Source of the DNA: Candidatus Dojkabacteria bacterium
GTDB taxonomy: Bacteria > Patescibacteriota > Dojkabacteria > J137
Length of the DNA: 64,000 nucleotides
Direction: 5' to 3'
NCBI GenBank assembly: GCA_040006935.1
Contig: JBDTVZ010000001.1
Span: 18,218-82,217, forward strand
The translations under genes and the position numbers were made by a program. Positions 23,901 through 61,388 of the stretch are shown piece after piece (positions within the stretch are counted from its first letter, which is position 1; every line of letters starts with the position of its first letter). The notes below the pieces were generated by a model. The model was not told the origin of the DNA, did not search any database, and saw only the letters and a list, made by a program, of their open reading frames with translations.

Positions 23901-26900
23901 ATGGAGAAGTAGAAAAATATCCACTATTTGATAATGATTACAATGAATTTGACGGAATAATGTTACATAGATTTGAAATTGAAGGTCAAAAATTTGATTT
24001 ATTTATAACTAAAGAAGGTGCAATTTGGTATTTCGATAAAGATAATAATTTTATGAGATTAGAAAATCCTGCAAATGTAGGAGGAACTATTACTTTAGAT
24101 AACGGTGAAGCTTATGAAATAAAATTAGATGCAAATCATAATGTAAGAGTTAAGAAGAACGAAGTTGTTGCAGCACCAGATGTAATTGGTGAGAAGATAA
24201 TTGTAGATGGAGATGAAGTTATCATTAACTCATCAGAAAATTTAAGATTACTTGGCTCTGGAAATAGCTCTATCCCACTTGAATCTTTTGCGATTAAAGA
24301 TGGTAAAGGGAAAATAGAAGAAGACTCAAGGCTATTAGTAATTAATAACCAGAAGTATGTGTTCAGAGATGGGAAAATATATGAAATTAATGGAACAGAG
24401 GTAGTAGAAGATCAAGATGGAACTATCACTATTGAATCATCAAAAGAGCGAGATGTGAAAGTAAAATTATCTAACGGTAAAATAGAAGTATATGAAATTA
24501 TAAAGGGTGATCTTAAATTACCAAAATTGGAAAGAAGAGAATTCCAAGCTAACAGTGTCGAAACGAAGAAACTAAGTTCAGAAGAAAGATTGCAATCACT
24601 AAATGATCAATTAAAAGATAAAAAAATCACTATAGAAAACAAAAATGAGAGTGCAATTACTATTAGTGATTTAGAATTAACACCAGATGAAAAGGCTTTA
24701 CTCCAAGGAAGATTATCTTTGTGGTACGACAGAATTCAAGAAATCAACCCTTTAATCTTAACTGGTCCGTATGATAAAACTTTCAATTTTCAAGAGTATG
24801 GTAATGGTGAAAGTATAGCTGCTGCAATTGTAGAATCTGGTTTTGAAGGAAATAATAATAGTTTAAATCTAGTTGATTTTATAAATAACCCTGACAAATT
24901 GGATATAGCTGATGTAGAAAGAGCTTTGATTAACAAATTTGGATGGAAAGAGGAAAAACAAGCAGAAAATAGAGTGGAAATTATGCTTTATGTTTACCAT
25001 TTAGTTCATGCTGTGGAAGGTGCATTAGGTGGATATTTCGGAGTATATAATCAATTAGAGGCTCTTGATGGTAAAGATATAAAAATTGATATTCAAAATG
25101 ATTCTGGGGCAAATGCTATTCGTTTTGTAGGTAAAGATAATATTAAAGAATTAACACCAGAGAACAAGGCCTTCATTGGCGGTAGAATTACTAAATTATT
25201 TGATATTTCTAGGAAGTTGAATCCTGATATTAGCCCTGAAGACCATCAAACACTTCACTATGACTTTTCAAATGATGGTAATAGGATGCTTAATGCTATT
25301 AGAAAAATTGTTTCTAAAGAGAACGCGGGACCAATATCCTTGTTTAATCTATTAAATGAGATCGAGATTATTGATTTCGGAGAATTATTCCCAACGTTGT
25401 TTATGGAGGGTTGGAAAGACGACAACATGAATGATAATAGAGCAGCAGTTGGTTTAATGCTTTGGCATTTAGCAAATGCAATTGAGGGACAGCTAAGTGA
25501 TAATGAAGTAAAGGGCGAAGACAAAATTTTGGATGTTGACACTGAAATAAAAAAAGACAAGGAATTTGTTGTCAGATTAATCTCTAGCATAAAAGATGTC
25601 ACACCTAAATCTACCTCTGAAGAACGGCTATTCCCGATGGTATTTGAAGCGATTGGCTATAATACTGGAAATAGAGATAACCCAGATTTGCTTGTAACAG
25701 CAATTATTATGGATTCTATTGAGCATTATGCACTTCCAGGATTAGTAAATAGAATAATAGACTTAATGGATATTGATGATGTCGATAGAGAATCCGTGCG
25801 ATTAGGAATTTATACATTTATAGAGGAAAAATTATTAACTAACGATATTGCTGTAGTTCATAAGGACGATGCAAAGACTGCTTTAATTGGACTTGAATCC
25901 AGGAAAACTCTAGAGACACTAGATATTGCTTTAAGTGTCGAAGAAATAAGTAAATTAAATAAAGAAAGTAATGAAGATGAACAAACTAATAATTTAGAAG
26001 TTAACAAGTTCCCGGAGAGTATGGAACTAAACAAGGCATATGAAACTTTAATTCAATGGGATAGAAATCCTTTAAAAGTTGAAATCCCAGTAACTAATGA
26101 GCAAGGGGTAAGTTTTCAGATAAGTTTTAACCATAAAGAATTAGTACCAGCACTTAATGCAGAAGGTCGAATAATGCATAGGGAATTTAACGTTAAGAAC
26201 TCCCAAAATGTTAAGGATTATCCTACTGAGTCTGGGGAATACACGTTGATTTATTCTTTTAGTAAGGTTAAAACATCGGGAGAGGGGATTGAAAGTTTAT
26301 TAATAGAGTATAAAGTTTTAAAGAAAGAAACTCCCGATTCTAAAAATATAGATAAAGTTAAGCTACTAAGAACGATTGAAGAAAAAGAGAAAAACTTAGG
26401 AGAATTACAAGAACAATTACAATCTAATCTAATAAGTAGAGAACTTTATAATGTCAAGAGGAGAGATTTAATGTTTAAAGTAGGAAATGATTGGTTATTA
26501 GTGGGGTTAAAACGATGGCATCTTCATCATCCTGAAAAAGCAGGTACCAAGGACGAATGGGAAATAATTAACCCATACCAAAGGTATCAATTAGAGAGGC
26601 CTATTATTAAAACTAAAGATATTAATGAACCAGACTTTCTTGCCAGCCTAAGTGAGGGTAATGATCAGGTAATCAGAAATCTAGATGCTGAGAAAATAAT
26701 TGGAGAACTTAAGCCAGGAAGACAGTTTGAATCGGATGATAATATCTTTACAGTTATAGAGATTACCCCAAACGGAGTATTTAGAACAAAAAGGCAATCA
26801 AGGAAAGGGGGAATAGAAGTATCTCTAAATTTTGCAAGAGAAAATCTATTGGAATATTTTACAGAAGGAAGGTTGAGAACTATTGAAAATATTAATGTAA

Positions 26901-27463
26901 ACGAAAATAAAAAGAAAGTAGATGAAATTGTTATCTCATTAGAAAAAAATAAAGAACTAATTGAAAGATTAACTATCAATGACAGATTCAGAAGAAAAAC
27001 CACAAATACTACTTACACAATCGAAGATAATGATGGTGATAGTTTGGTAGTAATAGAAAGCACTGCTCGAACAGAAACTCCTATGTTTTTAAGAAAAAGC
27101 ATTTTGCTTGAATGGTTGCTTAACGATGATGTGGAGATGTTAGAGCCAGAAGATAATTCTGAATATGAAAAAACTGTTGAAAACTTAAAGAAAGGGGATG
27201 AATTTACCTACAACGGAAACAAGTACGTGGTTTTACCTAGTATCTCAGGTTATCGTGGGATAGTTGGCGGTAACATAGATAAGCGAAGCGATGTGAAGAG
27301 ATTTCCATCTGGGACCTTTATGAGATTTTTAAAGGAAGGAGTAGTTAAGATTGAAAGTACGAATGAAGAGATAACGCAACAAGTTGCAAAAGGAGTAAAG
27401 GAAGCTCAGAGAAGTCCAACAGCTATTCTAAAGGAAATAGCAGATACTTATGAAGATTTATAA
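20906..27463 (+). CDS. giant protein (2185 aa): Gly/Ala-rich hydrophobic N-terminal region, Pro/Gln-rich linker, long K/E/N-rich C-terminal region
   Basis: Uninterrupted 6.56 kb ORF. Glycine-zipper-like hydrophobic segments (GMGVRAAFGTVGATGGPLVAGAIGGLTGGL; LIVAGGAIGFIGVAGSWAAES). A proline-rich low-complexity segment sits at ~22890-23230 and is locally GC-rich. No recognised catalytic motif. Confidence 0.8.
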   Translation: MNSAIAKAIAGQDTLVTPARFDNNQQKDRMRNKNGADGRGLVQKYGINPTDLAALEAYVDGNLQQVQIIDQDANTMEADRLNQSSGGEQWLRKHKITKFIGKFGKFIAPQIAGMGVRAAFGTVGATGGPLVAGAIGGLTGGLKAAVDITLAGRNNTDIVEFFGKNVNVAGVFEQQNRDKWKVDKLARGWFNWGKNWALEPVYKYQEREDRILNFLSDKRLDFSREGYFRDPMTVFPVMKNLPLSDIQLFLKDLYIQGTLLSAVGSRKDLTPEVRRIIQNWIDSFCELQLMLNAILLNRGLPLTQIEGIRTDATKEITSFRSAKGEAAYALRRGTTNAIQSAVYNVAFQTLVTGVQKLVTHYQGLVTINRELVPINNNVDAMRAANPRLDQIDQQVQNLQTQLQQTNVAGGVTNVTNQVVQNVAGTARDRALSLFGADYLNNAGMGEMGRWARVAAIQTFQNQYTPQVENLIGTLSRNTHLSRDDILAWIMNRGSIDGAYQVVGGASIVNLNVTDLLTRAINGQYNVASIIQGANANVDARWLDLMKNGMGQIINQVTTTNVAGAGLTDAARANIFEQIARLLAEKALIGENIGGAELQRAVAAMDPNILRQISEGSVNVLDYLIDTGLIVAGGAIGFIGVAGSWAAESGELGTRRTVEVRRNIPNPNTPMPPPVGPNGRPYPQPNAQRAAVYNATPYPQQAANQQPGLAPVPQGGLGSGVPVSSDETLHGVRALDDASAQTVPSDFFANTRQNTSTQPILNNAVPQQNQPVDQNNLVAKINQIMTENYDLPRIINEIINNPRTITLDAVIHNDNISRLFDKALISNLGIKEKVYYLGNDGLKKEKDIMKLIIINDQYNDIVKDLDAWGLSKDQIILRRIVNKPGGGEEEVFYNMKINNRNYTIEEITDSGVEVGGIQYGTPKVTDLGIGFNLLSQIEETQKSTSVGENQVENKDEDIIARFNIPDYPTGASQGYPESIAGKEAIINKNYKEEYKLQPYDGEVEKYPLFDNDYNEFDGIMLHRFEIEGQKFDLFITKEGAIWYFDKDNNFMRLENPANVGGTITLDNGEAYEIKLDANHNVRVKKNEVVAAPDVIGEKIIVDGDEVIINSSENLRLLGSGNSSIPLESFAIKDGKGKIEEDSRLLVINNQKYVFRDGKIYEINGTEVVEDQDGTITIESSKERDVKVKLSNGKIEVYEIIKGDLKLPKLERREFQANSVETKKLSSEERLQSLNDQLKDKKITIENKNESAITISDLELTPDEKALLQGRLSLWYDRIQEINPLILTGPYDKTFNFQEYGNGESIAAAIVESGFEGNNNSLNLVDFINNPDKLDIADVERALINKFGWKEEKQAENRVEIMLYVYHLVHAVEGALGGYFGVYNQLEALDGKDIKIDIQNDSGANAIRFVGKDNIKELTPENKAFIGGRITKLFDISRKLNPDISPEDHQTLHYDFSNDGNRMLNAIRKIVSKENAGPISLFNLLNEIEIIDFGELFPTLFMEGWKDDNMNDNRAAVGLMLWHLANAIEGQLSDNEVKGEDKILDVDTEIKKDKEFVVRLISSIKDVTPKSTSEERLFPMVFEAIGYNTGNRDNPDLLVTAIIMDSIEHYALPGLVNRIIDLMDIDDVDRESVRLGIYTFIEEKLLTNDIAVVHKDDAKTALIGLESRKTLETLDIALSVEEISKLNKESNEDEQTNNLEVNKFPESMELNKAYETLIQWDRNPLKVEIPVTNEQGVSFQISFNHKELVPALNAEGRIMHREFNVKNSQNVKDYPTESGEYTLIYSFSKVKTSGEGIESLLIEYKVLKKETPDSKNIDKVKLLRTIEEKEKNLGELQEQLQSNLISRELYNVKRRDLMFKVGNDWLLVGLKRWHLHHPEKAGTKDEWEIINPYQRYQLERPIIKTKDINEPDFLASLSEGNDQVIRNLDAEKIIGELKPGRQFESDDNIFTVIEITPNGVFRTKRQSRKGGIEVSLNFARENLLEYFTEGRLRTIENINVNENKKKVDEIVISLEKNKELIERLTINDRFRRKTTNTTYTIEDNDGDSLVVIESTARTETPMFLRKSILLEWLLNDDVEMLEPEDNSEYEKTVENLKKGDEFTYNGNKYVVLPSISGYRGIVGGNIDKRSDVKRFPSGTFMRFLKEGVVKIESTNEEITQQVAKGVKEAQRSPTAILKEIADTYEDL

Positions 27464-27465
27464 CT

Positions 27466-28485
27466 ATGGATCAACCACCTCAAGATTTGGTCAAAAAAAA
27501 GGGGAAAGTACTAGCTAGCCTTAACTTGTATCCAGAGCTTCTAAATCATCCTGATATGCAGGAGGATCGGCTAGCTACATTGAACCAAATTGGAGAAACT
27601 CTTTTAGGTTTGTTTCAAAAATTATTTAGTAACCCTGAGTACTACGGCGATGTATTTTTCATTGGTGGAATAGAAAAATGGCTTTCCGATTTAGAGAATA
27701 TTGAGATATTTGAAGCAGTAGTTCAACAACTTCGAACACTGGAGGAGATAGGGTCTGATCAAGCAGAATGGCATATTAGAAACTTTTTAAATAATGTAGC
27801 AAAAAGAGTTAAAAGTAATGGAGGTCAGTTATCACTACAAACAAATGATAAGTTAGGAATTACGGAAGCCGAAGCTGTTTTTAAGCAAATGGATAAAATT
27901 AGTGCAGAAAGAATTCATATCCCTGAGAATTTAAATATTTTATTGGACCAAAGATTTATAATTTCTGCACGCGAACTAGAAATAGATATGCAAAAGGTTT
28001 TAGCGCGTCCAAAAGTTACAGAAGTATCCTTTTTAGATCAGCCTAGAGCAGATTTCCAAAAAGAGATTGAGATGTACGATAATGATAGCGAAATTGATGG
28101 AGTTCTTTTGTTTATTCTTTCCAACTTAACAGGAGATGCTATGCAATATGTTATCAATCAAATGGTAAATAAATTAAAAAGAACTACTCAAACAGTTGTG
28201 GCAGTTCTTGAAAGGTATAGAACTTCGTTTGAAAGCAGAGTTTTGAGAGGAGAACAAATCTCGGTCTATGGATCGCCAATACGAGATTATGAATTAATTA
28301 TAAATGAAATACTTGATCTTATTAAAGAACAAGAGAAAAAGAATGGAGAGTATTTATTCGGTGCAGTAGATCTACTTAGAACCAAATCACCAGACGGGTT
28401 TGTAGGTATAACTAAAATGTCACAAATACTATTAACCACACATAGAGCAAGGTATAAAAGTAAAATTATAGCCTTACTAAAATAA
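27466..28485 (+). CDS. hypothetical soluble protein
   Basis: 339 aa; begins 3 nt after the giant ORF stop, so probably co-transcribed. Confidence 0.7.
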   Translation: MDQPPQDLVKKKGKVLASLNLYPELLNHPDMQEDRLATLNQIGETLLGLFQKLFSNPEYYGDVFFIGGIEKWLSDLENIEIFEAVVQQLRTLEEIGSDQAEWHIRNFLNNVAKRVKSNGGQLSLQTNDKLGITEAEAVFKQMDKISAERIHIPENLNILLDQRFIISARELEIDMQKVLARPKVTEVSFLDQPRADFQKEIEMYDNDSEIDGVLLFILSNLTGDAMQYVINQMVNKLKRTTQTVVAVLERYRTSFESRVLRGEQISVYGSPIRDYELIINEILDLIKEQEKKNGEYLFGAVDLLRTKSPDGFVGITKMSQILLTTHRARYKSKIIALLK

Positions 28486-28505: not shown

Positions 28506-31500
28506 ATGCAGTACGATGAGATTAAACAAACACAAAATAATAATCTTACCGAAATTCAAAGAGAACGTGAATTAAAAGCTGCACAACTTCGAGCACAAAA
28601 TGCTTCTACAATTTTAAACAAAAAAATTAATCGGTCTTCATTTTCTAATTCTGCTAAAGAAGTTAAACCATTTGATTATCTTGAACGGCTAGAATGTTCC
28701 ATGACATTAGATAGAGTTGATTCAGAAAGAAATGGTACTAATATCAATACTCAAATTATAAATTGTGATTACTCTACAGAAATAGATTCTAAAGGTAGAG
28801 AAATAATTAAAATGACAGTGCCCCATCGGCTGGATTTTTTAGCACTAAATTTAAACCCAGGATCAGTTTTTATTTTTGATAGGTCTAACTATAGATTGCT
28901 ATCTATAGAACAAAAAGATCAGCAGAAAGTAGTAAATTCTGTTGAAGTTTGGCCTCATGTTGAAATACTATCTATAGATAAAATACTTTTCACATTCTCA
29001 GATTTACTTAATAAAGAGAAAATCGTAGCCTTTGAAAGTTTAGAAAATAATGTAATGCGTCTCAAAAAAGGTCCTTTTGATGGCTTCCCAAATAAAATTT
29101 ATTTCCAAAAATATAACCTTGAGAACCCAATATTTATTGAAGACTATGATGAAATTAAAAAAGCCTACCATGCTCCTGGGCAAGGGTCTTTTATTGATGT
29201 TGATTATAATATGGCTATTAAAGCGTTTAACCAAGCATCGAACATATTAGAAACCGAAGACAGAACTGCTGATTTTCAATACCCAGAAGTATTAAGATTA
29301 TTTTCTAAATTAAAAATAGCATTTGCTAAAGATTTAATTCCTAATGAAAATCCTCATGACACTGTTTTTGAATTGAGATTAAGAAACGAATTAAATATTG
29401 ATGGTGTACATATTTACGCAGGGGCAGTAATGAAAATTGATGTGAATGATCCAGAATTTTTTACAATAAAGTATCCTCCTCAAAATGGTGTCCAGATTGA
29501 GTTTATAGAAATAAATGGCACAAAATTATATGCACCAGGGGAAATTTTGTGTAGAAATACCTCCGAAGATCTCCAAATAACCTCAATAAATGGTGGCCAA
29601 CTCGAGAATATGGGAAGCGAAAGAGTTATTAAAATTATAAAAGCAAATAATGGATTTATTGGCTTGGTAGCAAATGATGAAGTAATTAAATTCACGAAAG
29701 ATCATAAAGTTTTAACTTTACTAAGTAATGTGGACCCATCAGTACAAATACTAATAAGTGATATTATGAAAAATAGATACTTTTTACATGATATTTACTC
29801 TGATAATTACCTAGAAGGGGCAATTGAACTTGTAAGTAATCACACAGGTTCTCTTGCTACAATAATATTTGAAGATGAACAACCTGGGAATATAATTATT
29901 CCAAACTATCCAAACATTCATCCATCGTTACACGGTCTTGCAATAGGCCAATTTGACAGATTAATTTTAGATAAAAAAGGTGAATTTGCAATCTTTGGCG
30001 TTGCTACTGAAAGATACGATATGCATTTTCGTGGAGTATGGTACGAAAGAATAGAACGAATTTTTATAAATTTTCGAACTGGAGAGGTTAGGTTTAGGTG
30101 TGATAGCTATTTTGAAGGTGGCAAAAGATACGGTCAAACTAAGTACAGTGAGAATACTTATATTATTGTCGATAATTTAGGCCTTAAACAAACAGGAGAT
30201 GGTATATTTTCTGAAGTCGAAAACAATGTGCCAAAGGGAGATGATTATAAGGACCACATTTCAAGGACGCTTAAAATTAAAGAAATAAGAATAGGAGATA
30301 TGAGACAGTTAAATGAAGATAGGATTGATATAACTGCATCATTTGACTCAATAGTATTAAATAACCAAGAAAACCCCACATTACATAACTGGATATACGC
30401 ACAGGCTCCATTTGGAAGTATTGTTAACTTTAATAGTAAAAATTCTATAATTGAAAGCATTGAAGTACCCTACGATACCTATATAAAATCTGGTGGGATA
30501 CGCGCATCACTAGGATCTAGCTTTAAAATAAGTGGTATAAGAAAAGTTTTATTTGAGGAAGATTCTCAGAATTTTCCATTAGATGTAAAGGAATTAAAAG
30601 GTGAAATTACTATTACATTAAATAATAAAATTTATAGGGCAAAAGATATTAGTGTTAATAGTTTAGGTTTAAAATTGGACAAATTCCCTTTAATTACTTG
30701 GGAGGTTATTTACAATGGTGCTACAGAATTACCTGATGAGTTATTAGTGGAAAATAATAGTGTAAATATACCAACAAAGAACGAAATTCTTTATCTTGCA
30801 AATCGATTAACTGTGCAGGTTAATAATAGGAAACCTGAAGATGACTTTGATCTAGAACAAAATGTAAATAGTTTAATCGGGCTAACAAGATGGCTATATG
30901 AATCTGCAAATAAATTAGGTGGCCCATTCAATCTAGCGGAATGGGTTACAATCTATAAACCATTACTTTATTATTACTATAACGACCCTGAGGCAGTAAT
31001 ATTGCTAATAATGGGCTTTATACCTAATTCAAACGGTAATATAGATCCAATAGATTACATGTTTCTTTATGCAACATACCTTGAGATTTTTAAACAAAGA
31101 TATCCGGAGGTAGAAAGTGAATTAATTTTACTATTGAGTAGTTTAAACCCCGATCTTAAATTTATATATAAGAATGAAATTAAAGATATTATAAGTAATT
31201 TTGAAATACTCGAAGATGAGAATAAGCAACATTTCCTAGACGAGTTAGATAGCATAAATATGGATACGCCTAGTCATATCCCAGTCCCAGTAAGTCACTC
31301 TCAAGTAGAAGGCTTCAAAGCAGACCAATTCTCAATAGAAAAAGGTTTTCTCAAATTTAATGAAGAACCTAAAGCAATCGATCTTTTACAAAGAATAGGT
31401 AACCTTCGAGAACTTTCAACTAGCTCTGAGCTTGACAAGCAAATAGAAATAATTAAAGAAAACGGTTCGAGAATTGATATGAATGTTGTTGGTCAGATTT

Positions 31501-33941
31501 CTCAAATCCTTGAAACAATAATAGGCTTTAAGATCGAAGGTTTAGATCTAGCTAAGAACTTTGTTGTATTTGGAATGATAATAAACTTTGCAAATAACTT
31601 ACGCGAATTAAAGAACAAAAGGTCTAAAGACTCTCAAGAAGAAATAAATATTGCTATAACTGAACTGCAGAATAAAATAAATAGAATTAAATCTGGCGAA
31701 TTAACAGAAGAAGAAATGCAATTTGAAATGTCTAATGAAAATGTATTGAAGATTTTAATGCACATGACCTCCGGAACTTTACCCAAAGAATATCTAGTAT
31801 TTACAATATTGATGTTGATTACTTCTGGTGTTGAAATTGCTGGAGTTAGAAACGTTTTAAAACTTGATCAAATTATAAAAAACCAAAGAGGAGATGATAT
31901 TGGAGTTCCGTATTTAAAGTATAGAGAGGAAATACTTGAAGTAAAAGCCACAGGAAATGTGATGGCACTACAAGAAGTTATTATAAAAAACGTAAGCATG
32001 TTAATCAACTACATGAGAAATTTTCATAATTACGAGGATTACTCCGAAGATTTTTTAGTAATGTGTAAATTATTGAACCTTAAAGAAGGTGAGTTCTCTA
32101 CCAACTGTTTTGGTATAGGGCTAATTTATCAAGCCATACTTGACTTAATGATTGGTGATATTTGTGAGATTAATTATGCAACTCTCCATCACGAATTAGG
32201 TAATGATATTGAAGACTGGTTTAAAAATCTGGGTGAAATAGTTATGGCGGGTCATGCTGTATTCATTATTAAACTTCCACTTATAGATGGAGAGGAAAAT
32301 AAATATATCATTGGAGATCCACTAAGTGTGATTAACAGCTTAGCTCAAAAAAATAAAAGAAAACCTTTAGACAAACATCATAATTGCATGGTTGTAAAGG
32401 AGTCCGAACTTATGCTAGACAATGAGATTAATTCTGTTCTTGAAAATACAAAATTCGTTACTATAGATCCTAATAAAAAAATCCGAATAGTTCAGAAAGA
32501 TAATAAAGAAATACAAATGAAGATAGATCCTAATGATGTTTATCAAGTATATAAAGACAGGAATTCTATTTTAACCTATGCAATGATTAGTTCCTTCAGA
32601 GATTTAAATGGCTACTTAACAACCATAGCGCCAGATGAAGGTGAAGTATTAATGGATATGATTACAGATTCAAAATATAAAGGAGATAGAAACAAAGCAT
32701 TTGAGAAGTATATGCTTTTATATAATAGATATTCAGGATTTGAATATAGATCTACAAACTCTAATCAAGTAATAGCATCGAATATAATATTATTAAATTT
32801 TGCTCTTGAAAATGATTATTATATTGAAGCTTTGTTCCTGGCCAATGTAAATAAAATAAAATTAGCCAAACTATATCCAGACAAAGACGACTACGATGAA
32901 TCTTTAATTTTCGATACGCAAAAAGCATTTATACTTACAAAAATAGCCAATCTCGATGAGACAGAAATCCTAAAATTAATTGAAGATAAAAAATATCTTT
33001 TAAGAAAAGAAGATATTACACTTATCTGGGAAAATGTCTCCTTTATAAATTTAACATTGCGTTTATTTAATGAAACAAAAGAGGATCAAAAAAGAACTCT
33101 AAAATTACTATCTTCTGAGTCACTTTACTATTTGATTTTTGATCCACTAAGATACAATAATATCCAGGAAATGAAAGACTTATGTAAAGAGATATTAAAA
33201 GTTGCTTTGGAAAATGATTATTTACCATATTCAGCTTATATTATAGAAAAACTAGTTAAGTTAAGTCCCGAAGACGAAACTCTGAAATTAGTAGAAGATA
33301 AGATTATAAAATTCATTGCTAAAACCGATAACTATATAATACTTACACAACTAAATCCACATTTAATTTTCTCAAAATTTATAGACAAAATTCATAAAGT
33401 TTTAGAAGTTAGTTTTGAGATACCAACTATCCAATCAATTTTAAACATATTGAATGGAGTGAAGGATGATAAAGTTATTGATGATCAATACGAAAGTCTT
33501 CACAAAGTATTAAGTAGTAATCACACTGCACTTGATAGAGCTGCTTATCGACATAAAGTTGAAGAAGAAAAAAGAATAGTTGCAGCTGTAGAGGCAAACA
33601 CTCATAGAATTGAGGAGATAAATAATCAAGTAAAAACTGAAGTGAGGTCAGGAGGGCAATCCTACCAATCCCTGCATCAAGAAGAAAAACCCCTTGAACT
33701 TGGAGACAACTATATAAAAATAACTGAAGAGGCTGTTTTCGGATCGATTGATCTACTCGTGAGTAAATATGGTGAACTCTCAGGAGACATAATGGCTCTA
33801 TTTCTTCGAGGAGCTGATGAAACAGTAATTCGTCTAGCAGAGAATAATTTGAGGAAGAAAGGAATATTACTTCCATCACCCGAAAATGCAGCTAAAAGGT
33901 TACAAGGACAAAATCTCCCATTGTTACAATCGAATTCTTAA
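28506..33941 (+). CDS. giant protein (1811 aa), no hydrophobic segments recognised
   Basis: Uninterrupted 5.4 kb ORF; its stop overlaps the stop of the convergent VirB4-like gene by 4 nt. Confidence 0.8.
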   Translation: MQYDEIKQTQNNNLTEIQRERELKAAQLRAQNASTILNKKINRSSFSNSAKEVKPFDYLERLECSMTLDRVDSERNGTNINTQIINCDYSTEIDSKGREIIKMTVPHRLDFLALNLNPGSVFIFDRSNYRLLSIEQKDQQKVVNSVEVWPHVEILSIDKILFTFSDLLNKEKIVAFESLENNVMRLKKGPFDGFPNKIYFQKYNLENPIFIEDYDEIKKAYHAPGQGSFIDVDYNMAIKAFNQASNILETEDRTADFQYPEVLRLFSKLKIAFAKDLIPNENPHDTVFELRLRNELNIDGVHIYAGAVMKIDVNDPEFFTIKYPPQNGVQIEFIEINGTKLYAPGEILCRNTSEDLQITSINGGQLENMGSERVIKIIKANNGFIGLVANDEVIKFTKDHKVLTLLSNVDPSVQILISDIMKNRYFLHDIYSDNYLEGAIELVSNHTGSLATIIFEDEQPGNIIIPNYPNIHPSLHGLAIGQFDRLILDKKGEFAIFGVATERYDMHFRGVWYERIERIFINFRTGEVRFRCDSYFEGGKRYGQTKYSENTYIIVDNLGLKQTGDGIFSEVENNVPKGDDYKDHISRTLKIKEIRIGDMRQLNEDRIDITASFDSIVLNNQENPTLHNWIYAQAPFGSIVNFNSKNSIIESIEVPYDTYIKSGGIRASLGSSFKISGIRKVLFEEDSQNFPLDVKELKGEITITLNNKIYRAKDISVNSLGLKLDKFPLITWEVIYNGATELPDELLVENNSVNIPTKNEILYLANRLTVQVNNRKPEDDFDLEQNVNSLIGLTRWLYESANKLGGPFNLAEWVTIYKPLLYYYYNDPEAVILLIMGFIPNSNGNIDPIDYMFLYATYLEIFKQRYPEVESELILLLSSLNPDLKFIYKNEIKDIISNFEILEDENKQHFLDELDSINMDTPSHIPVPVSHSQVEGFKADQFSIEKGFLKFNEEPKAIDLLQRIGNLRELSTSSELDKQIEIIKENGSRIDMNVVGQISQILETIIGFKIEGLDLAKNFVVFGMIINFANNLRELKNKRSKDSQEEINIAITELQNKINRIKSGELTEEEMQFEMSNENVLKILMHMTSGTLPKEYLVFTILMLITSGVEIAGVRNVLKLDQIIKNQRGDDIGVPYLKYREEILEVKATGNVMALQEVIIKNVSMLINYMRNFHNYEDYSEDFLVMCKLLNLKEGEFSTNCFGIGLIYQAILDLMIGDICEINYATLHHELGNDIEDWFKNLGEIVMAGHAVFIIKLPLIDGEENKYIIGDPLSVINSLAQKNKRKPLDKHHNCMVVKESELMLDNEINSVLENTKFVTIDPNKKIRIVQKDNKEIQMKIDPNDVYQVYKDRNSILTYAMISSFRDLNGYLTTIAPDEGEVLMDMITDSKYKGDRNKAFEKYMLLYNRYSGFEYRSTNSNQVIASNIILLNFALENDYYIEALFLANVNKIKLAKLYPDKDDYDESLIFDTQKAFILTKIANLDETEILKLIEDKKYLLRKEDITLIWENVSFINLTLRLFNETKEDQKRTLKLLSSESLYYLIFDPLRYNNIQEMKDLCKEILKVALENDYLPYSAYIIEKLVKLSPEDETLKLVEDKIIKFIAKTDNYIILTQLNPHLIFSKFIDKIHKVLEVSFEIPTIQSILNILNGVKDDKVIDDQYESLHKVLSSNHTALDRAAYRHKVEEEKRIVAAVEANTHRIEEINNQVKTEVRSGGQSYQSLHQEEKPLELGDNYIKITEEAVFGSIDLLVSKYGELSGDIMALFLRGADETVIRLAENNLRKKGILLPSPENAAKRLQGQNLPLLQSNS

Positions 33942-35911
33942 ACTTGCGGTGGAACAGCTGAAACTTCTGTAGTAACAGGTTGTTCAATAGGCTGTGCTTG
34001 AGGAGTTACATTATCTGTTGGTAGAACTGTTCCTGGTTGTTCTAATGGTGGAGCCGAAGAAATATCTAACTGATCTCCTTCTTCATTTTCTACTTTCTGT
34101 TGAAGTAACTCATTAGGGTTTGTAGTTATCAAATTATGCTCATTTTGACTTGCAACAATTTGTATAGCAACATGATTAGCCCCAGCAAAAAATAATCCTT
34201 GTCCAATTCCTGCAGACATTAAAAAAGACTTTTCACCATCTGTAAGATAGAATACTTTCTTTAATTTATCTATCGCAGCTGGTGCTTGCTTCAATAATAT
34301 CTGCATGGATGAGTTATTAATTATTGCTTTACCATAATCTGAAGCTAAGAAGTCATCAACATCTTGTGTAATAGTTGTTAGACCTAATGCATATTTTCTA
34401 GCTCTCTTAGCAATTGAGTATACAAACTTGGCAGCATCTTCGTATTGCATCATAATCCAAGCTTCATCAATTATTAATAATCTTTTCCTCTTATCTCTTT
34501 TAATCTTGGTCCAAATGTAATCAAGCATTACATACATGGCCATTGGTCTTAAATCATCAGCTAAATCACGAATTGAAAATACTGTAAATGTATTGTGAAT
34601 GTTAACCGTGGATTTCCTATCAAACACACCAGATGCGGAACCTTTTAAATATTTTTCTAATCTACGAGCCATTGAATGGGATTCATCTTCCGACATTGCA
34701 TTTAAAATCTTATACAAATCTTCTAACAAAGGAGCTTCGTTTGAATGTGTTGATGGATCGGGTGTGATACCTTTTTCTTTGTACGTTAATATTAAAGCTC
34801 TATCTAAAATTGCTGCTTCCTCTGCAGTTACTGTTCCACCCAACATCATTCTAATTAATCCAGAGAGAGTTAAAATTTTAAATCGGAGTTCATCTTCATC
34901 AGCGTTAAATATCCCAGATAATTCAAAGGGATTCAATTTCTGAGCACCGTCTTGCGAGAATGATATATATTCTCCACCAACTGCATCACATAATCTATCA
35001 AATTCTTTTTCTGGGTCTATAATAATAATGTCAATTCCAAGCATTAAGGACCTCACAGCTTCCAATTTAACTGCATAGGATTTACCAGCTCCGGATGTAG
35101 CCAAAACGACTGAGTTAGCATTAGGAAGTGAAAATCTATCGAAAATAACTAAAGAATTATTATGAAGATTAACCCCATATAAAACTCCTTTATCCATTGT
35201 TAACTCACTACTGACGAATGGGAAAGTTGTAGCAATGGCAGTAGTATCCAAGTTTCTGGTCATATTTATTTTATCAAGACCATATGGAATTGTGCTTTGG
35301 AAACATTCTTCTTGTTGAAGTGTAGCAACTTTAATAATAATTCCAATCGTTGCCATTGTGCTCTCCAGATTCTTTGAAATTTTATCTAACTCTTCCATAG
35401 TATCTGCATGCAATGTTACGTACAAGGCATATTGGAAGAATTTTTCGTTCCCAGCGGCAAGCTGTTCTTGCAAAGTTAATGCATCTTTAAGTTGTACTGC
35501 AACAATAGGATCTCCTTGTCTACCTGCTTCAATTTCAATATTTATTGTTGCCTGAAACTCTGCAATTTTTCTTTTTAAGATTTTTAATATTTCACCAGTT
35601 TCAAAAGGATAATAATAAGTGCTGATGTCTACGGGATATTCAAAGTTAATTAATGGTTCTAACCAACTAGGAGAAACAACACTAGGAAAGCCGATAGCAA
35701 AATATGATCTAAAATACTTATTCCCTATTATTAAATTACTGAAGTTAACCTCAATGGCACTTGGTGCAATAATGTCTTTAACATCAATTAATCCTTGAGC
35801 AAATTTCTGAATAGATTGGTTCTCTCGAGCCAAAGCAGCAGCTTCTTGAGGGTTTATAGGTTTTGTACCTTTTTTAGGTTTTGCGTCTGGTATTAATCCG
35901 AATAAAGCCAT
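33938..35911 (-). CDS. VirB4/TrbE/CagE-like type IV secretion ATPase (C-terminal 657 aa)
   Basis: Walker A LATSGAGKSYAV, Walker B LLIIDEAW; the overall VirB4-family arrangement; a C-terminal ~60 aa Pro/Gln-rich tail. Confidence 0.85.
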   Translation of the reverse strand: MALFGLIPDAKPKKGTKPINPQEAAALARENQSIQKFAQGLIDVKDIIAPSAIEVNFSNLIIGNKYFRSYFAIGFPSVVSPSWLEPLINFEYPVDISTYYYPFETGEILKILKRKIAEFQATINIEIEAGRQGDPIVAVQLKDALTLQEQLAAGNEKFFQYALYVTLHADTMEELDKISKNLESTMATIGIIIKVATLQQEECFQSTIPYGLDKINMTRNLDTTAIATTFPFVSSELTMDKGVLYGVNLHNNSLVIFDRFSLPNANSVVLATSGAGKSYAVKLEAVRSLMLGIDIIIIDPEKEFDRLCDAVGGEYISFSQDGAQKLNPFELSGIFNADEDELRFKILTLSGLIRMMLGGTVTAEEAAILDRALILTYKEKGITPDPSTHSNEAPLLEDLYKILNAMSEDESHSMARRLEKYLKGSASGVFDRKSTVNIHNTFTVFSIRDLADDLRPMAMYVMLDYIWTKIKRDKRKRLLIIDEAWIMMQYEDAAKFVYSIAKRARKYALGLTTITQDVDDFLASDYGKAIINNSSMQILLKQAPAAIDKLKKVFYLTDGEKSFLMSAGIGQGLFFAGANHVAIQIVASQNEHNLITTNPNELLQQKVENEEGDQLDISSAPPLEQPGTVLPTDNVTPQAQPIEQPVTTEVSAVPPQV

Positions 35912-36622: not shown

Positions 36623-36834
36623 TTAAAAATTAAAAGATTTCTCCTTCAACTATAACAGTATATAGTAAATAGCTGAAAGGATACAATAGGAAATTATTAA
36701 GGACCTATAGCATTAGTCAATAGAAGTTAATCAAAGAATCTAAAAATTTGGGACTGGTTATTTGCCATTGGTTATTATAAGGGTATAATCCTTTAAGCAT
36801 ACCTGATGGCGCAGGTTATTTTTTTAATTTTTAA

Positions 36835-41359: not shown

Positions 41360-41866
41360 ATATAAATGCGATTAAGTTGCGAAGATAATAATGCAACATT
41401 GTCGCATTGTCAAATATTACTTATAGTTATTTTTAATTGAGTAAAATTGTTCTCTGTATACAATTATTTATCACGAAACTACAGCATATAGTATTTCCTT
41501 GACTTACTTATCACAACTTTCTAAAGTATAAGTTACAGCATTCTAAATATTTAGAAATTGGGAAAGAGGAGTAACTCAATTAAAAATTATAAATTTAAAG
41601 ATGAATAGCAAATGAGATTCTCTTTAATTGATTACTTTTAATTTTTAATTGTAAAATCTCCCACTGTGCCGCAACTGTGATGAGAGAGCTTGAGTTTATG
41701 AGAGGATAAGTTACGAATGAAAAATTCCCGTAACACAATTACTCATCATCTCATTCTCTATCTAAGTCAGAAAACCAATCTGTGCCTACAAAGAATTTCT
41801 TTGGAGTCTACGAGCAATAGACATTAGTTTTTAGCAGTTGTACGCTCACAGCTGTTTTTTTACAAT

Positions 41867-52200: not shown

Positions 52201-53220
52201 ATGGACAAAAATGAACAAAAAAATATCAAATATTTCCAGTTAGCTTCTATAATATTTAGTATTATCTTTTTCATATTAGTTTTTCAAGCAATTTACCCGC
52301 ACTACATATTTGGTGTTTGTGACTATACTCGGTGGTTGACAATTCCGATGGTTCTTTTTGCCATACTAAGTTTCTTAACATTTTTACCTAACTTTATTAT
52401 CCGATTTAAACAAAGATCACAAACTAAATTATTTTTAGTTAATCTAATCTTCATTTTGCTTACAGTTTCTATACTGTTTATTTCAATTTTAAGTAACCTT
52501 TGTGGTGGTTCTACAGGTATAACTGGAGCCACTGGTTTAAACGGGACAATTGGAGTATCAGGGAATATTGGTGGAACGGGTGAACAAGGAAAACCAGGAT
52601 CAACTGGATCAAAAGGGATTTCTGGGCAAACTGGTACCCAGGGTAACTCCGGTGAAGCAGGTGCAGTTGGAGCTGGTGGAACACCTGGATCTGTAGGATC
52701 TACTGGAAGCAATGGGATACCCGGAACAAACGGTTTAGTTGGAGGTTTAGGGTTACAAGGGCCACCAGGTCCACAGGGAGATCCAGGAGCTGCTGGTACT
52801 CCAGGAACAAGTGCTAATATTAACTATGGGTACATTTATAATACTGGTGCCCAATCAGTAGCAATTGATGCTCCTATTCTTTTCAGCTCGTCCGGACCAA
52901 TGGTTGGAGTCACACATACTGCTGGAACATCTACAATTACTATTACTAATGCTGGAGTATATTCAATTAATTTTTCAGTATCAGGGGCAGAAGCTAATCA
53001 ATTTACTGTATATATAAATGGCACACCATCTCCTACAACTACTTATGGCTCAGCAGCTGGTATCCAACAGAATAATGGACAAGCAATTCTTATACTCGGT
53101 GCTGGTGATGTTTTAACTGTTGTAAATCATTCTTCTGCAGCTGCTGTAACTCTTACAGCTCTAGTTGGAGGGACACAATCAACAGTAAGTGCTTCAGTAC
53201 TTATTAGACGATTAGATTAA
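52201..53220 (+). CDS. collagen-like triple-helix repeat protein with a BclA/C1q-like C-terminal domain
   Basis: 339 aa; three N-terminal TM helices, ~100 residues of G-X-Y repeats (GATGLNGTIGVSGNIGGTGEQGKPGSTG...GPPGPQGDPGAAGTPG), then a ~130-aa beta-rich domain (ITITNAGVYSINFSVS...TVYINGTP...AILILGAGDVLTVVN) typical of BclA/TNF-like trimerisation domains. Confidence 0.8.
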   Translation: MDKNEQKNIKYFQLASIIFSIIFFILVFQAIYPHYIFGVCDYTRWLTIPMVLFAILSFLTFLPNFIIRFKQRSQTKLFLVNLIFILLTVSILFISILSNLCGGSTGITGATGLNGTIGVSGNIGGTGEQGKPGSTGSKGISGQTGTQGNSGEAGAVGAGGTPGSVGSTGSNGIPGTNGLVGGLGLQGPPGPQGDPGAAGTPGTSANINYGYIYNTGAQSVAIDAPILFSSSGPMVGVTHTAGTSTITITNAGVYSINFSVSGAEANQFTVYINGTPSPTTTYGSAAGIQQNNGQAILILGAGDVLTVVNHSSAAAVTLTALVGGTQSTVSASVLIRRLD

Positions 53221-53646: not shown

Positions 53647-54217
53647 TTATTTACTAATCTTCTTTATCATCCCCTCTATTTTTGGTAATAGATCAGTGTC
53701 TATAAATTTGATTAATTCAGATCCTTTATCCGGTGAATTCGATACGTCTATTGTGCAGGCATATTTAATACCATATTCAGCACCCGGAGGAAGTTTAGAT
53801 AGGTAATCTGCTAATTCAGACTCCTTAAGTGTGATAACTTCTACAGGTCGATCTAAGTGGGAGAGCTCAATTAGAATTTTATAACCTGGTAAATCTTTAA
53901 AAAACCTTGCCAAAAATCGTGTTGGAGTCTTCAGTTCAGTCTTTGAAGGTATAAATATTTGATCATGAAGAATTAACCCTTTCAGATTATTTAATCCTAA
54001 AGATATATCCTCCAGTGTATTTATTAGTTTATCCTTAGTAGGTGCAAATGTGGATCCTAACAATACTTCTTCATATAGCCCCCCCAAAGTGAAACTGTGC
54101 CCGATCTTCTACTGTATTAATTACCATATTTAGCCCCGGAGAGAGAGTAACAGATAGCGTATCCTTGCCTAGACTGCCGATTTTTTCAATTATAGGAGTA
54201 AATAATGTTGGGTTCAT
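53647..54217 (-). CDS. hypothetical protein interrupted by a frameshift in a C7/G7 homopolymer
   Basis: A 49-aa ORF from the ATG at 54217 (MNPTLFTPIIEKIG...AQFHFGGAI*) and the 146-aa ORF 53647-54087 (which starts at TTG) are joined into one ~194-aa reading frame by removing one C from the C7 run at 54079-54085. Confidence 0.5.
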
Positions 54218-54241: not shown

Positions 54242-54592
54242 TTAGTAAGTTAACATTTTATTAATCAATCCAGACAGCATCTTCCCTATTATAACTAATG
54301 AACTATAAATATTGCTATACTCGATTTCGTTTATTTTATCTTCGATCTTTAGAAGCTTTATTATTGCTACACATTCCTGCGTGGAACCACGAGCTATTAT
54401 ATAAAAGTTCTTCTTATCTTTACTACTATATTTACCAGCTCCCTCTGCAATATTTAACAAAATACTTGAAGACGCACGATATAACTGGTCTCTTAGGCTA
54501 TTATGTATCAATCTATTTTTTAGAAAAGGTTGTAGAGAAGTTATTAAGTCTTCAGTTTTCAAATACACAGGAAATTTTTCGAAATCAAACAT
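54242..54592 (-). CDS. four-helix-bundle protein (TIGR02436 / bAvd-like), second copy
   Basis: 116 aa; LNIAEGAGKYSSKDKKNFYIIARGSTQEC family signature. Confidence 0.8.
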   Translation of the reverse strand: MFDFEKFPVYLKTEDLITSLQPFLKNRLIHNSLRDQLYRASSSILLNIAEGAGKYSSKDKKNFYIIARGSTQECVAIIKLLKIEDKINEIEYSNIYSSLVIIGKMLSGLINKMLTY

Positions 54593-54725
54593 TACTATTA
54601 TGGTAAATGTTTGATTATAGCAAAAAGAGAAATCTTGAAAAAGAAATTCCTAAATTCTTAATCTTTGCCTTTATCTTAATTCTTAGAATTTAGATAAAGA
54701 ATTGAGTATTAGAATTAAGAAGAAT

Positions 54726-54969
54726 AGCAGGTAGGGGGAATCGAACCCCCCTCATCAGTTTGCCTGCCCGCCTAAGGTAAAGTCAGGTTGCAATAAAGAA
54801 TGTGAATACAGCGGGTAGAGGGAATCGAACCCTCCTCTTCAGTTTGGAAAACTGACATAATAACCGATATACTATACCCGCTGTATTCACACTAATTATT
54901 TTTAATACCAGTTAAGTTTACTATGGCAGGCGGGGGAAACTGGCATAATAACCGATATACTATACCTGC
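54726..54969 (-). tRNA. tRNA-Gly(CCC)-like gene split in the anticodon loop: 5' exon 54969-54934, 173-nt insert 54933-54761, 3' exon 54760-54726 (minus strand)
   Basis: Minus-strand halves: GCAGGTA-TA-GTAT-ATCGGTTA-TTAT-G-CCAGT-TTCCC | insert | AA-ACTGA-TGAG-GGGGG-TTCGATT-CCCCC-TACCTGC. The acceptor pairs perfectly (GCAGGTA/TACCTGC). The discriminator is U. The T-arm is canonical. The anticodon stem has a C27.A43 mismatch. Confidence 0.5.
54810..54881 (-). tRNA. tRNA-Gly(UCC), complete, inside the insert of the split tRNA
   Basis: Minus strand GCGGGTA-TA-GTAT-ATCGGTTA-TTAT-G-TCAGT-TTTCCAA-ACTGA-AGAG-GAGGG-TTCGATT-CCCTC-TACCCGC-T. The anticodon is UCC and the discriminator is U73, as expected for Gly. 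The D-arm is identical to that of the outer tRNA. Leader TGTGAATACA and trailer TGTATTCACA form a perfect 10-bp extension of the acceptor helix. Confidence 0.8.
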
Positions 54970-55588
54970 ATTAATTACTCCACAATTATAGCAAGTAACT
55001 CAAAATTTTCAAGAATAACAATAATGGCTATGCTACTCATAAACCGACATTTTGAAAAGGCCGTGCCACCTCCTATTCAGTTTTCCGTCAAACTTTAGCG
55101 ACACATCGAATTATCGTTACCAGGTAAGCACTTAGATGTATTCTGATGATTGACAAAAGTATATTTCTGTTATATAATTAAATAGTTAAAAATCAATTAC
55201 AGATCGCGTGTTTACAAGACGGGATGGTCAAGGGAAAGTACGTGAGTCCCAAAACAACCACAAAACTCCCCAACCCTAGTTAATAGTTAAAAATTAATAG
55301 TTAAAAGAAGGAAATATCTTCTTGTTCAATTTCAATAAATGGTTATTAATAGTGCACTTAACTCTTCACTATTAAATCTTAACTATTTATGGGCATTGAA
55401 CCATCTTATTTTCGTAAGAATTTAAGACTCATGCTTAATTCTACTTTATTGTAGAAGAACCTTAAAAACTCAAAAGAAGAAATTCTTTTGGGTTTCGTGA
55501 TTAACAATACACATGCTAACGCTGTGTGTTAATTGCAAAAACCCAATAGAAAGCTTAATAATTCGATTTAACTCTAGTTTACAACTGG

Positions 55589-55625
55589 ACGCATATTGCC
55601 TATAAAATTTGTAGGTAATATGCGT
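55589..55625. promoter_or_regulatory. 37-bp near-perfect palindrome upstream of the island ORF (candidate operator)
   Basis: ACGCATATTGCCTA-TAAAATTT-GTAGGTAATATGCGT: 9-bp perfect arms plus a 4/5 extension, about 80 nt upstream of the ATG at 55707. Confidence 0.35.
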
Positions 55626-55706
55626 ATTCAGTTGTAACTAGGGTGCACGTAGATGCAACTGAAGAAAGAAGTCCCGATACGCTAGGGCAATATAGGAGGG
55701 TCTTAA

Positions 55707-56696
55707 ATGACCGCAACTACAACAAGCCCTGTAACCCGGGCTTCCAATTCGGGTTGGTTCTGGATATATTTGATACTTTTTATGTTCGCTTGTATTGGTT
55801 TAAGCGGTCTCGCGCTACGATACACCAATGGCAACGGAGCAATCAAGAACAGTGCAGCAAGCGTAAGCTTGACAATGCAGCCACTGAACACTAACTACGG
55901 AGCCGGTGGTGTAAATGATTCACCAACGGCAACGCCTTATTGGCAACCTTCGACTATTTCGACGCAGACAGCAGTTCCAAACACATTGATTAACGACTCG
56001 ACATTCGGTTGGGTATATCAAAGTGATGTAACATGTATTCGCAATACATTTGAAGCAATGCATGTTACTCGCATCGTCAACATCGGACAGTCTGTCGGAA
56101 CTGACGGTTCGCCTTCACCAACCCTTGCTTTAATTGGCGTAATCAGCGAAGGCTCTTTTGTGTCTGAATTTGACAACACCAATGGACGGTCATTGACCTT
56201 TCGAGGTGGCGAGGAAGAACAAATCACTCCTACAAGTCCGACACAAATTATCCTCGTAATACTCAATCAAAATGTGGTCAATTTCGCAAATTTCTACTCA
56301 CAACCCTTGCAAGGGGTTGTTGCTGAAGGCGGAGTACCGCTGCTGTCTGTGGGTATAGAAATTAATCAAGGTCAAGGGAATGTTAGCGAAAATCTCTACT
56401 GGGGTAATTCTCTTATTGGTTACGTTAACGGACCTGTAACAATTGTACAGGATATTGGATCAGTATTCACCAACTACACTATGTCGGAGCTGGGCAATCA
56501 CTTGACTTTCAATGACTTTTCTCCTGATAACCTCAGAGGAATCGGTATACCTGTTGAAATGCTTGGAAATGACTGCTGGTCAATCAGCCTAGCTGTCACA
56601 GTCCCAACAAATCAAATACTCAGCTTTGGTGTGGGAACTTTTCAGTATCCACACTATACAGCTATCGCAGACTACCTGATGGTTCACAGCCAGTAA
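55707..56696 (+). CDS. membrane-anchored Ser/Thr/Gly/Asn-rich protein of foreign composition
   Basis: 329 aa; one N-terminal TM helix (WFWIYLILFMFACIGLSGLAL). Codon and amino-acid usage are clearly different from neighbours: GC about 45% against about 30%, and almost no Lys/Glu. No recognised domain. Confidence 0.7.
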   Translation: MTATTTSPVTRASNSGWFWIYLILFMFACIGLSGLALRYTNGNGAIKNSAASVSLTMQPLNTNYGAGGVNDSPTATPYWQPSTISTQTAVPNTLINDSTFGWVYQSDVTCIRNTFEAMHVTRIVNIGQSVGTDGSPSPTLALIGVISEGSFVSEFDNTNGRSLTFRGGEEEQITPTSPTQIILVILNQNVVNFANFYSQPLQGVVAEGGVPLLSVGIEINQGQGNVSENLYWGNSLIGYVNGPVTIVQDIGSVFTNYTMSELGNHLTFNDFSPDNLRGIGIPVEMLGNDCWSISLAVTVPTNQILSFGVGTFQYPHYTAIADYLMVHSQ

Positions 56697-60718: not shown

Positions 60719-60997
60719 TTATTGTACGCTGCTGACTTCCAGTCCCTTATCTTCTAAACACAATTGATAAAGGTAAGTAGAAGGTTCCGTTCTAGTCACT
60801 CCATTGGCAGTATTAGTTACTGTTGCACTCTTAAAACAGCCGTCAATTGCATCGTTTTTTGTCTTTTGTACTTCAAGAGAGTACGTATCTTGAGCTATTT
60901 TTAGGTAATCTGCTGACCTTATGAATGCAACATAAGCAAGGATACCTATAGCTATAATGAATGCGATTCCTAGTAGAAAATTTATAAATACCTTCAT
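60719..60997 (-). CDS. small membrane-anchored protein
   Basis: 92 aa; N-terminal TM; two Cys. Confidence 0.5.
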   Translation of the reverse strand: MKVFINFLLGIAFIIAIGILAYVAFIRSADYLKIAQDTYSLEVQKTKNDAIDGCFKSATVTNTANGVTRTEPSTYLYQLCLEDKGLEVSSVQ

Positions 60998-61109: not shown

Positions 61110-61388
61110 TTACTTTTTAAGTTTGTTCTTAATATATTTACCGTTTAGTATAAGTACTAAGCCCGCATTGAATGCTGCTCCAATAGCTATTACATCAAAT
61201 GCTCCTATCTGACCGGGATTATCATCTTGAAAAATAATACCAGTATTTGCGCATGTAGTAATACCATATGCTCCAACTGTACAAGTTTGACCACCAGCTG
61301 CTGAAACAGTATTTATATTACTAAATACAAATGTAAATAGGAACATTGATATTGCTACTATTATTAATTTTATTATATTTTTTGTCAT
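61110..61388 (-). CDS. small secreted Cys-containing protein with a C-terminal hydrophobic segment and basic tail (possible sortase substrate or pilin-like)
   Basis: 92 aa; signal peptide ending ...NTVSAAG; C-terminus AIGAAFNAGLVLILNGKYIKNKLKK resembles a cell-wall sorting signal but has no LPXTG. Confidence 0.5.
   Translation of the reverse strand: MTKNIIKLIIVAISMFLFTFVFSNINTVSAAGGQTCTVGAYGITTCANTGIIFQDDNPGQIGAFDVIAIGAAFNAGLVLILNGKYIKNKLKK

Follow-up and report, generated by a model that had tools for sequence, protein, structure and literature searches.

A seven-guanine run at the break in an apparently split, CPR-restricted gene of Candidatus Dojkabacteria: a possible slipped-strand lesion next to a nested pair of tRNA-Gly sequences

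When a homopolymer coincides exactly with a change of reading frame, does it mark a reversible genetic switch, a recent accident of replication or an error of assembly? The locus that raises this question lies in a 64,000-nt stretch of DNA (referred to as the window) from the 516,739-bp contig of a Candidatus Dojkabacteria MAG. Read directly, the plus strand carries CCCCCCC and the minus strand a G7 tract. The minus-strand ATG at 54217 opens a frame of 48 sense codons that passes through the tract as CAG TTT CAC TTT GGG GGG GCT ATA TGA; the stop codon (54073-54071) thus lies two codons past the run. A second listed ORF is read in the +1 frame and has its start inside the run. For this downstream part the NCBI record gives a product of 138 aa from TTG 54063 (hypothetical protein MEP7103146.1, locus ABI721_00350), and the upstream fragment is without annotation. 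Removal of one G joins both frames into a single ORF, MNPTLFTPIIEKIG...AQFHFGG-LYEEVLLGS...KKISK, with the junction peptide AQFHFGGLYEEVLLGSTFAPTK; its 189 aa replace the roughly 194 aa of the original prediction. In silico, a G6 tract yields the 189-aa product, G7 one of 48 aa and G8 one of 53 aa owing to an early stop, such that G6 and G9 are in frame and G7 and G8 are out of frame. The tract occupies codons 45-47 of the reconstructed 189-codon ORF, within its first quarter. The features of the locus and its surroundings are collected in Table 1.

Table 1. Features of the split gene and its surroundings, numbered from the first letter of the window
Feature	Position	Strand	Remarks
G7 homopolymer	54079-54085	-	Probable +1 insertion site; direct sequence reading, FHFGG aligned to P0002
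5' gene fragment	54071-54217	-	From ATG 54217; N-terminal four beta-strands of the predicted family fold
3' gene fragment	53647-54087	-	+1 frame; 146-aa ORF from TTG 54087
Whole interrupted gene	53647-54217	-	With G6, would encode 189 aa; rare CPR-restricted family
NUDIX hydrolase MEP7103145.1	53217-53630	-	Downstream neighbour, 16-nt gap
Four-helix-bundle / 23S rRNA-intervening-sequence protein	54242-54592	-	Upstream neighbour, 24-nt gap; PF05635 5e-20, TIGR02436 4.9e-20
Promoter-like site TTTTCA-16-TATAAT, extended TG	54614-54641	-	Upstream of the four-helix-bundle gene; consensus match only, 10/12
Outer tRNA-Gly(CCC)-like 3' half	54761-54726	-	Flanks the inner tRNA
Insert with the inner tRNA, 172 nt	54933-54762	-	Begins directly after the outer anticodon, in the anticodon loop
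Inner tRNA-Gly(UCC), complete	54809-54882	-	Annotated; called by ARAGORN and Rfam
Outer tRNA-Gly(CCC)-like 5' half	54969-54934	-	Flanks the inner tRNA
Promoter-like site upstream of the nested tRNA	55012-54985	-	11/12 matches plus TG

Sequence comparison shows that the two frames belong to one gene and not to two. An exhaustive HMMER search of the fused protein against 1.84 billion representatives recovered three true homologue clusters, namely P0002 (NCN03878.1 of a Candidatus Pacebacteria MAG; 199 aa, E 5.9e-23, aligned to query residues 5-186), P0003 (205 aa, E 4.6e-11) and P0005 (194 aa, E 5e-7); a fourth match, P0004, is a repeat-protein artefact and was discarded. A word-indexed search with the fused protein matched the gene's own annotated product alone, and a profile re-search for the family added no further members. 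All three homologues come from other CPR bacteria and are single ORFs of 194-205 aa that span both halves, as the original prediction had proposed should be checked in relatives, and no split homologue was found among them. They are intact on contigs from independent samples, 11 for P0002 (from JGI, NCBI, ENA and Logan), eight for P0005 and two for P0003, and relative to these intact homologues the ORF in the window is disrupted in the manner of a frameshifted pseudogene. Each half also finds the family by itself in BLASTP: the upstream 48 aa align with residues 7-53 of P0002 (E 4e-10), and the downstream ORF follows collinearly with residues 64-198 of the same protein (E 5e-25). The alignment has invariant columns on either side of the run, and the motif RAxFHFGG is common to P0002 and the protein of the window.

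Codon usage and structure prediction lead to the same view. With log-odds scores trained on the other genes of the window, the upstream and downstream halves score +0.32 and +0.37 per codon in their expected frames, compared with 0.41 +/- 0.11 for other genes, and both are negative in the alternative frames. AlphaFold2, run on the four-sequence alignment, returns one domain (pLDDT 85.9, pTM 0.83) to which the upstream piece contributes four beta-strands (E9-12, E20-26, E29-34 and E39-44). Single-ORF homologues, codon usage and a single-domain model thus strongly support the proposal of one coding sequence interrupted at the homopolymer. A search of both halves for further decay, in the form of extra stops or loss of codon bias, revealed none beyond the single lesion. 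The normal codon usage and the lack of a second stop point to a recent lesion, and a pseudogene, if it is one, would be a recent one.

The same data bear on the idea of a stable gene fission, in which polypeptides of 48 aa and 138-146 aa would reassemble into the fold. PGAP does call the 3' part as a gene, and TTG codons are available at 54087 and 54063. However, ATG opens 39 of the 50 genes in the window, and 46 of the 50 have an AT-rich start context, a pattern into which ATG 54217 fits and which both TTG codons lack; Shine-Dalgarno sites are missing from 46 of the 50 genes. Since, in addition, no homologue is split and the break adjoins a conserved strand, a working two-piece protein is most improbable.

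How precisely can the lesion be placed? A one-base deletion at any position of 54073-54111 restores the ORF. Homology through FHFGG narrows the site to 54073-54085, judging from the alignment, and the run makes up 7 of those 13 bases; in the G6 state, the conserved Gly-Gly of the motif would be encoded by two GGG codons. The run could conversely be innocent and read in frame as GGG GGG GCT (Gly-Gly-Ala), with a deletion of 3n+2 nt just downstream as the true cause. The protein of the window is indeed 4-9 residues shorter than its homologues in the linker after GG, the alignment has a 6-residue gap directly after GG, and the 'AI' of the 0 frame resembles the 'SM' of P0002. Yet this account needs a rare multi-base event within about 8 nt of the sole G7 in 64 kb, the length of the linker already varies among homologues (P0005 being 4 residues shorter), and a one-base homopolymer slip is far more probable a priori, which leaves a deletion next to the run with a very slim chance.

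Little in the product betrays its function. Searches of Pfam, NCBIfam, PADLOC and PHROGs gave no match, no signal peptide is evident, and no signatures of surface, restriction-modification, glycosylation, glycosyltransferase, defence or phage proteins were found. The fold is confidently modelled as alpha/beta and has no known fold assigned; in the model it is at most weakly GNAT-like. The likeness to GNAT-fold acyltransferases is restricted to the protein fold, and the combination of a significant sequence or structure match with an acetyl-CoA binding motif that defines membership of that family was not found. A CoA-binding neighbour accompanies P0002 in its loci. The family appears to consist of rare, CPR-restricted cytoplasmic proteins of 190-205 aa.

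The gene sits in a compact series of genes on the minus strand. The four-helix-bundle gene probably is the first gene of the transcription unit that also holds the split gene, and it is preceded by a promoter-like site of a kind whose total count in the region is not above that in shuffled sequences. The NUDIX gene is probably co-transcribed with the split gene, and the premature stop could therefore be polar on it. In the nearest NUDIX relatives (61% and 50% identity), a DUF1801 gene takes the place of the split gene; together with the mere three homologous clusters among the 1.84 billion representatives, this marks the split gene, as far as comparison goes, as a patchily distributed accessory gene of a readily lost kind. 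On the other side, a plus-strand gene at 52201-53220 converges on the NUDIX gene with a 4-nt overlap; its product combines a collagen triple helix with a BclA domain at the C-terminus and a hydrophobic segment at the N-terminus, resembling surface proteins of exosporium filaments.

The tract itself is less exceptional than it may seem. The original prediction considered a 7-nt G/C run in coding DNA rare in so AT-rich a genome, and at a window G+C of 32% this G7 is in fact the only G/C run of at least seven within the 64 kb, the sole other run of at least six being a C6 at 54746-54751 in a tRNA-like T-stem. However, 100 dinucleotide-preserving shuffles contain on average 0.93 G7/C7 runs per window, with at least one in 53 of the 100, against the one observed. 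The existence of the run is not beyond chance; its location exactly at the frame change is the non-random part. A mechanical scan for homopolymers at which a gain or loss of one base fuses open frames of at least 40 codons returned 27 sites, mainly ordinary gene boundaries and antisense frames, and is unspecific.

At the Gly-Gly site, the homologues use GGT GGA (P0002), ACT GGA (P0003) and ATT AGA (P0005), and at 14 homologue loci no G/C run of at least six occurs anywhere in the gene. Within the window, GGG accounts for 12.7% of Gly codons, from which GGG-GGG is expected at roughly 1.6% of Gly-Gly dipeptides. Among the 79 Gly-Gly dipeptides of the other genes, GGGGGG is found in none, compared with about 1.3 expected; the difference is not significant, and the absence is compatible with avoidance and with chance alike. 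On the basis of GGG usage, G6 tracts are expected to arise occasionally by drift or chance, and G6 tracts are natural, known hotspots of slippage.

The explanation that we tentatively prefer, and which we would place just short of probable, is a genuine and recent slipped-strand lesion from G6 to G7 that switched a dispensable accessory gene OFF. The conserved Gly-Gly of FHFGG would first have become encoded by GGG GGG in this lineage, and the resulting G6 tract would then have gained one G via slipped-strand mispairing in replication. Translation from ATG 54217 would halt after 48 codons, and the remaining three quarters, which have no credible start of their own, would go unexpressed, leaving the gene OFF. 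We infer that the extra G belongs to the organism's own DNA and is no product of the assembly, that slippage was its cause and that the truncated products are inactive. Such a loss-of-function lesion may still be polymorphic in the population; reversion from G7 to G6 is mechanistically possible, and there is no sign that selection maintains the tract. It is important to point out what speaks against this reading: one clean lesion between intact halves is exactly what a contingency gene in its OFF phase looks like. Overall, we favour a slippage mutation over a consensus error, and a consensus error over a selected contingency switch.

A consensus error would mean that the 189-aa gene is intact, with G6, in the organism itself, and that faulty homopolymer calling introduced the extra G into the MAG. 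Exact-product look-ups for the gene and both of its neighbours retrieved no contig in the index, hence no independent assembly, and a protein-guided scan of species-representative genomes and JGI metagenomes found no relative; this lineage is represented by one assembly only. In favour of an artefact, one extra base accounts for the break, it falls in the window's longest G/C homopolymer, the two halves are flawless otherwise, and the NCBI annotation carries no pseudogene flag. Homopolymer indels are the main residual error of long-read data, and the 517-kb contig fits data of that type; in short-read data, a G7 is normally called correctly. Against an artefact stands the quality of the remaining sequence, in which no other frameshift was found among about 60 genes. 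Intact ORFs of the window hold 81, 27 and 6 A/T runs of 6, 7 and 8 nt, respectively, and all 114 are in frame, which implies a low per-run error rate, at least for A/T runs; this control covers A/T runs, as the same ORFs contain no G/C run of at least six. Coding sequence fills 90% of the window, two ORFs as long as 2185 and 1811 aa are unbroken, 20 large ORFs have essentially full coverage of their Pfam profiles, and same-strand overlapping ORF pairs encode distinct complete domains rather than pieces of split genes. An artefact of base calling is therefore unlikely, though a serious contender.

The remaining major alternative holds that the G tract is kept because stochastic switching between G6 and G7 is advantageous, and that the MAG caught the OFF phase; the downstream NUDIX gene would then perhaps be switched too, by polarity. 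We regard a selected switch of this kind as rather unlikely. Its appeal lies in the architecture: a simple-sequence tract of potentially hypermutable type, albeit of marginal length with G6 as the ON state, lies in the first quarter of the ORF, its length toggles the frame in silico, both halves are undecayed, and two rare GGG codons stand where P0002 has GGT GGA. In its 5' intragenic G/C tract, AT-rich genome and toggling by gain or loss of one base, the locus resembles the poly-G/C loci of Campylobacter, Neisseria, Haemophilus and Helicobacter. The tracts of these classical contingency loci are usually at least 8 nt long, many per genome and variable between strains, and the genes that they control are surface, LOS, flagellar-glycan or restriction-modification genes (see also PMC8355987). 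Here, in contrast, there is one tract; with G6 as its ON state it is short for high-rate slippage, and its host is a cytoplasmic orphan gene in whose product no signature of surface, restriction-modification, glycosyltransferase or defence proteins was found. The tract occurs in no homologue, its number equals the chance expectation, and neither its maintenance nor its over-representation is apparent relative to chance and homologues. The product is not of the typical cargo, the 64-kb window does not hold several such loci, and this G7 remains the sole G/C tract of at least seven despite a nearby cluster of glycosyltransferase, polysaccharide and sortase genes at 58.7-63.5 kb. The label of a phase-variable contingency locus that was originally attached to the gene is accordingly neither demonstrated nor favoured, as the tract is absent from homologues and not above chance.

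Other homopolymer tracts provide further precedents. In M. tuberculosis, which lacks MMR, the 7C tract of glpK is an experimentally reversible switch (10.1101/717272), which makes the idea plausible in principle, and a general role of homopolymer tracts in switching genes off has been proposed (PMC2831843). The glpK tract and the one described here are both 7-nt, glycine-encoding G/C tracts in a cytoplasmic gene in which a +1 insertion inactivates (10.1101/717272); however, the in-frame state of glpK is 7C, whereas the 7-mer in the window is the OFF state, and the reversibility and within-host polymorphism of glpK have been shown experimentally, whereas the gene in the window is known from one assembly. 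The 5' poly(A) tract of Listeria monocytogenes inlA offers a likeness in that inactivation near the 5' end is efficient and potentially reversible (PMC2831843); the over-representation reported in that study concerns poly(A)/poly(T), while no over-representation of G/C tracts is seen in the window. MutS/MutL are missing from some CPR lineages, at least from Saccharibacteria (PMC8406219). Our literature search on phase variation in Patescibacteria found no report. Should the gene be phase-variable after all, which again is rather doubtful, it would be the first documented homopolymer phase-variable gene in Patescibacteria, and G6/G7 heterogeneity in sequencing reads would make it an entry point to phase variation in this group, where the topic is of interest because these episymbionts rely on contact with a host and MMR is missing from some CPR lineages.

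A full-length protein might also be made from a genuine G7 by recoding, which could proceed by +1 ribosomal slippage of tRNA-Gly on GGG_GGG_G, by quadruplet decoding or by transcriptional slippage. A +1 slip on GGG-G would re-pair perfectly and give the exact conserved FHFGG-LYEE junction, and GGG is a minor Gly codon. In this perfect re-pairing towards a correct product, the site is akin to prfB/RF2 and to sufD-type suppressors. Classical frameshift suppressors of the sufD type are tRNA-Gly(CCC) variants with an extra C, and in prfB the site is conserved, an in-frame stop stands at the shift codon and an SD-like stimulator lies upstream. None of these three features of prfB is present or conserved at G7: no homologue has a slippery site here or shares the split, the next 0-frame codon is the common GCU, and the stop follows only two codons further on. 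Stimulatory elements at the shift, be it structure, a stop or a rare codon, are lacking; the mRNA fold of 53990-54110 shows no extra structure compared with shuffles (z = +0.64). Moreover, G7 is short for slippage by RNA polymerase. Taken together, recoding at the tract is very unlikely. A separate form of recoding, read-through of UGA under code 25, was rejected, given that a TAA soon follows and that ORFs under code 11 cover 90% of the window.

In an ORF-free stretch of 1.1 kb beside the split gene, 650 nt away from it, lies a tRNA-Gly(CCC)-like gene of unusual nested arrangement that has a C5 run at the anticodon. If this gene matured into a tRNA that reads GGG-G or favours +1 slippage, full-length protein would be made and the two loci would constitute a natural frameshift-suppressor pair in a CPR bacterium; the link between them rests on adjacency only, and we consider it exceedingly improbable.

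The nested tRNA-Gly pair is nonetheless a more unusual object than the frameshifted gene. Joined together, the two outer halves form a canonical 72-nt tRNA-Gly(CCC) according to ARAGORN, a program that accepts many artificial joins; ARAGORN in intron mode does not call the outer gene. The insert forms a long stem with the complete inner tRNA on it, and the 257-nt unit as a whole folds as one cloverleaf nested in another (MFE -99.3 kcal/mol, z = -7.8, none of 200 shuffles being as good). Outer and inner tRNA differ at 7 of 72 positions, one of which is the wobble base of the anticodon; four of the seven differences make up two compensatory pairs, 3:69 from G-C to A-T and 49:63 from A-T to G-C. 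A group I intron signal was not detected in the nested unit even at E 1 or better. The outer gene is either functional and in need of a novel route of maturation, or a tRNA gene disrupted by an insert that itself carries a tRNA.

Comparable arrangements did not surface elsewhere. Among the 120 tRNA-Gly loci listed from other genomes, the motif belongs to a normally called tRNA in 116 cases and to a bare 3' half in the other four; none of these four has a matching 5' half, and a second copy of the motif was found in none of the 120. The two-copy tRNA-Gly pattern had no match in metagenome contigs, the literature on nested or split tRNAs that we searched held no description of such an arrangement, and a paper on tRNA introns in Patescibacteria mentions neither tRNA-Gly nor nesting. 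The four bare 3' halves begin in the anticodon arm (L055 3186-3209, L073 335-358, L089 1761-1784 and L090 416-439); they come from Clostridia, Spartobacteria and two cyanobacterial genomes and look like attachment-site remnants of integrative elements.

As it stands, the annotation calls for a routine correction. ABI721_00350 (MEP7103146.1) represents a 189-aa gene without its 5' quarter, and the entry should be marked as frameshifted or as a pseudogene; the comparison also defines a small CPR-only protein family that comprises P0002, P0003, P0005 and the gene in the window.

Several further elements of the window deserve mention in their own right. On the plus strand, a perfect sigma-70 consensus, TTGACA-17-TATAAT (12/12), lies at 55150-55178, about 530 nt upstream of the ORF 55707-56696, which encodes 329 aa without a family match and is among the few genes with a strong AGGAGG site. 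In the long leader of this ORF, Rfam gave no match at gathering score; a near-perfect hairpin of 76 nt (55570-55645, plus strand) closely precedes the ORF. The 11-mer TTAATTTTTAA occurs seven times, at 36623, 36824, 38610, 38888, 41638, 44911 and 55287, compared with 1.19 copies expected, a number that none of 100 shuffles reaches. All copies lie outside mapped ORFs. For five of the seven, a gene start is no more than about 25 nt away, and these five include copies on either side of two divergent intergenic regions; those at 41638 and 55287 are further from any mapped start. TTAATTTTTAA is a candidate promoter or regulatory motif.

The two giant plus-strand ORFs, at 20906-27463 (2185 aa) and 28506-33941 (1811 aa), and the 339-aa ORF between them (27466-28485, plus strand) have no Pfam match at E 1e-5 or better. 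A TraG/AAA_10-type P-loop ATPase gene (33938-35911, minus strand) adjoins them, and the region may be a cluster for a CPR surface or secretion apparatus. The alpha subunit of phenylalanyl-tRNA synthetase (14803-16602, minus strand, 599 aa) has an N-terminal segment that matches the AlaRS profile, namely the C-terminal end of class II AlaRS (PF01411 positions 478-552, E 2.4e-12), an unusual fusion. Finally, two minus-strand ORFs of exactly 92 aa each, at 60719-60997 and 61110-61388, lie between glycosyltransferase genes and a sortase gene; both are without a Pfam match, and they may be tandem paralogues.
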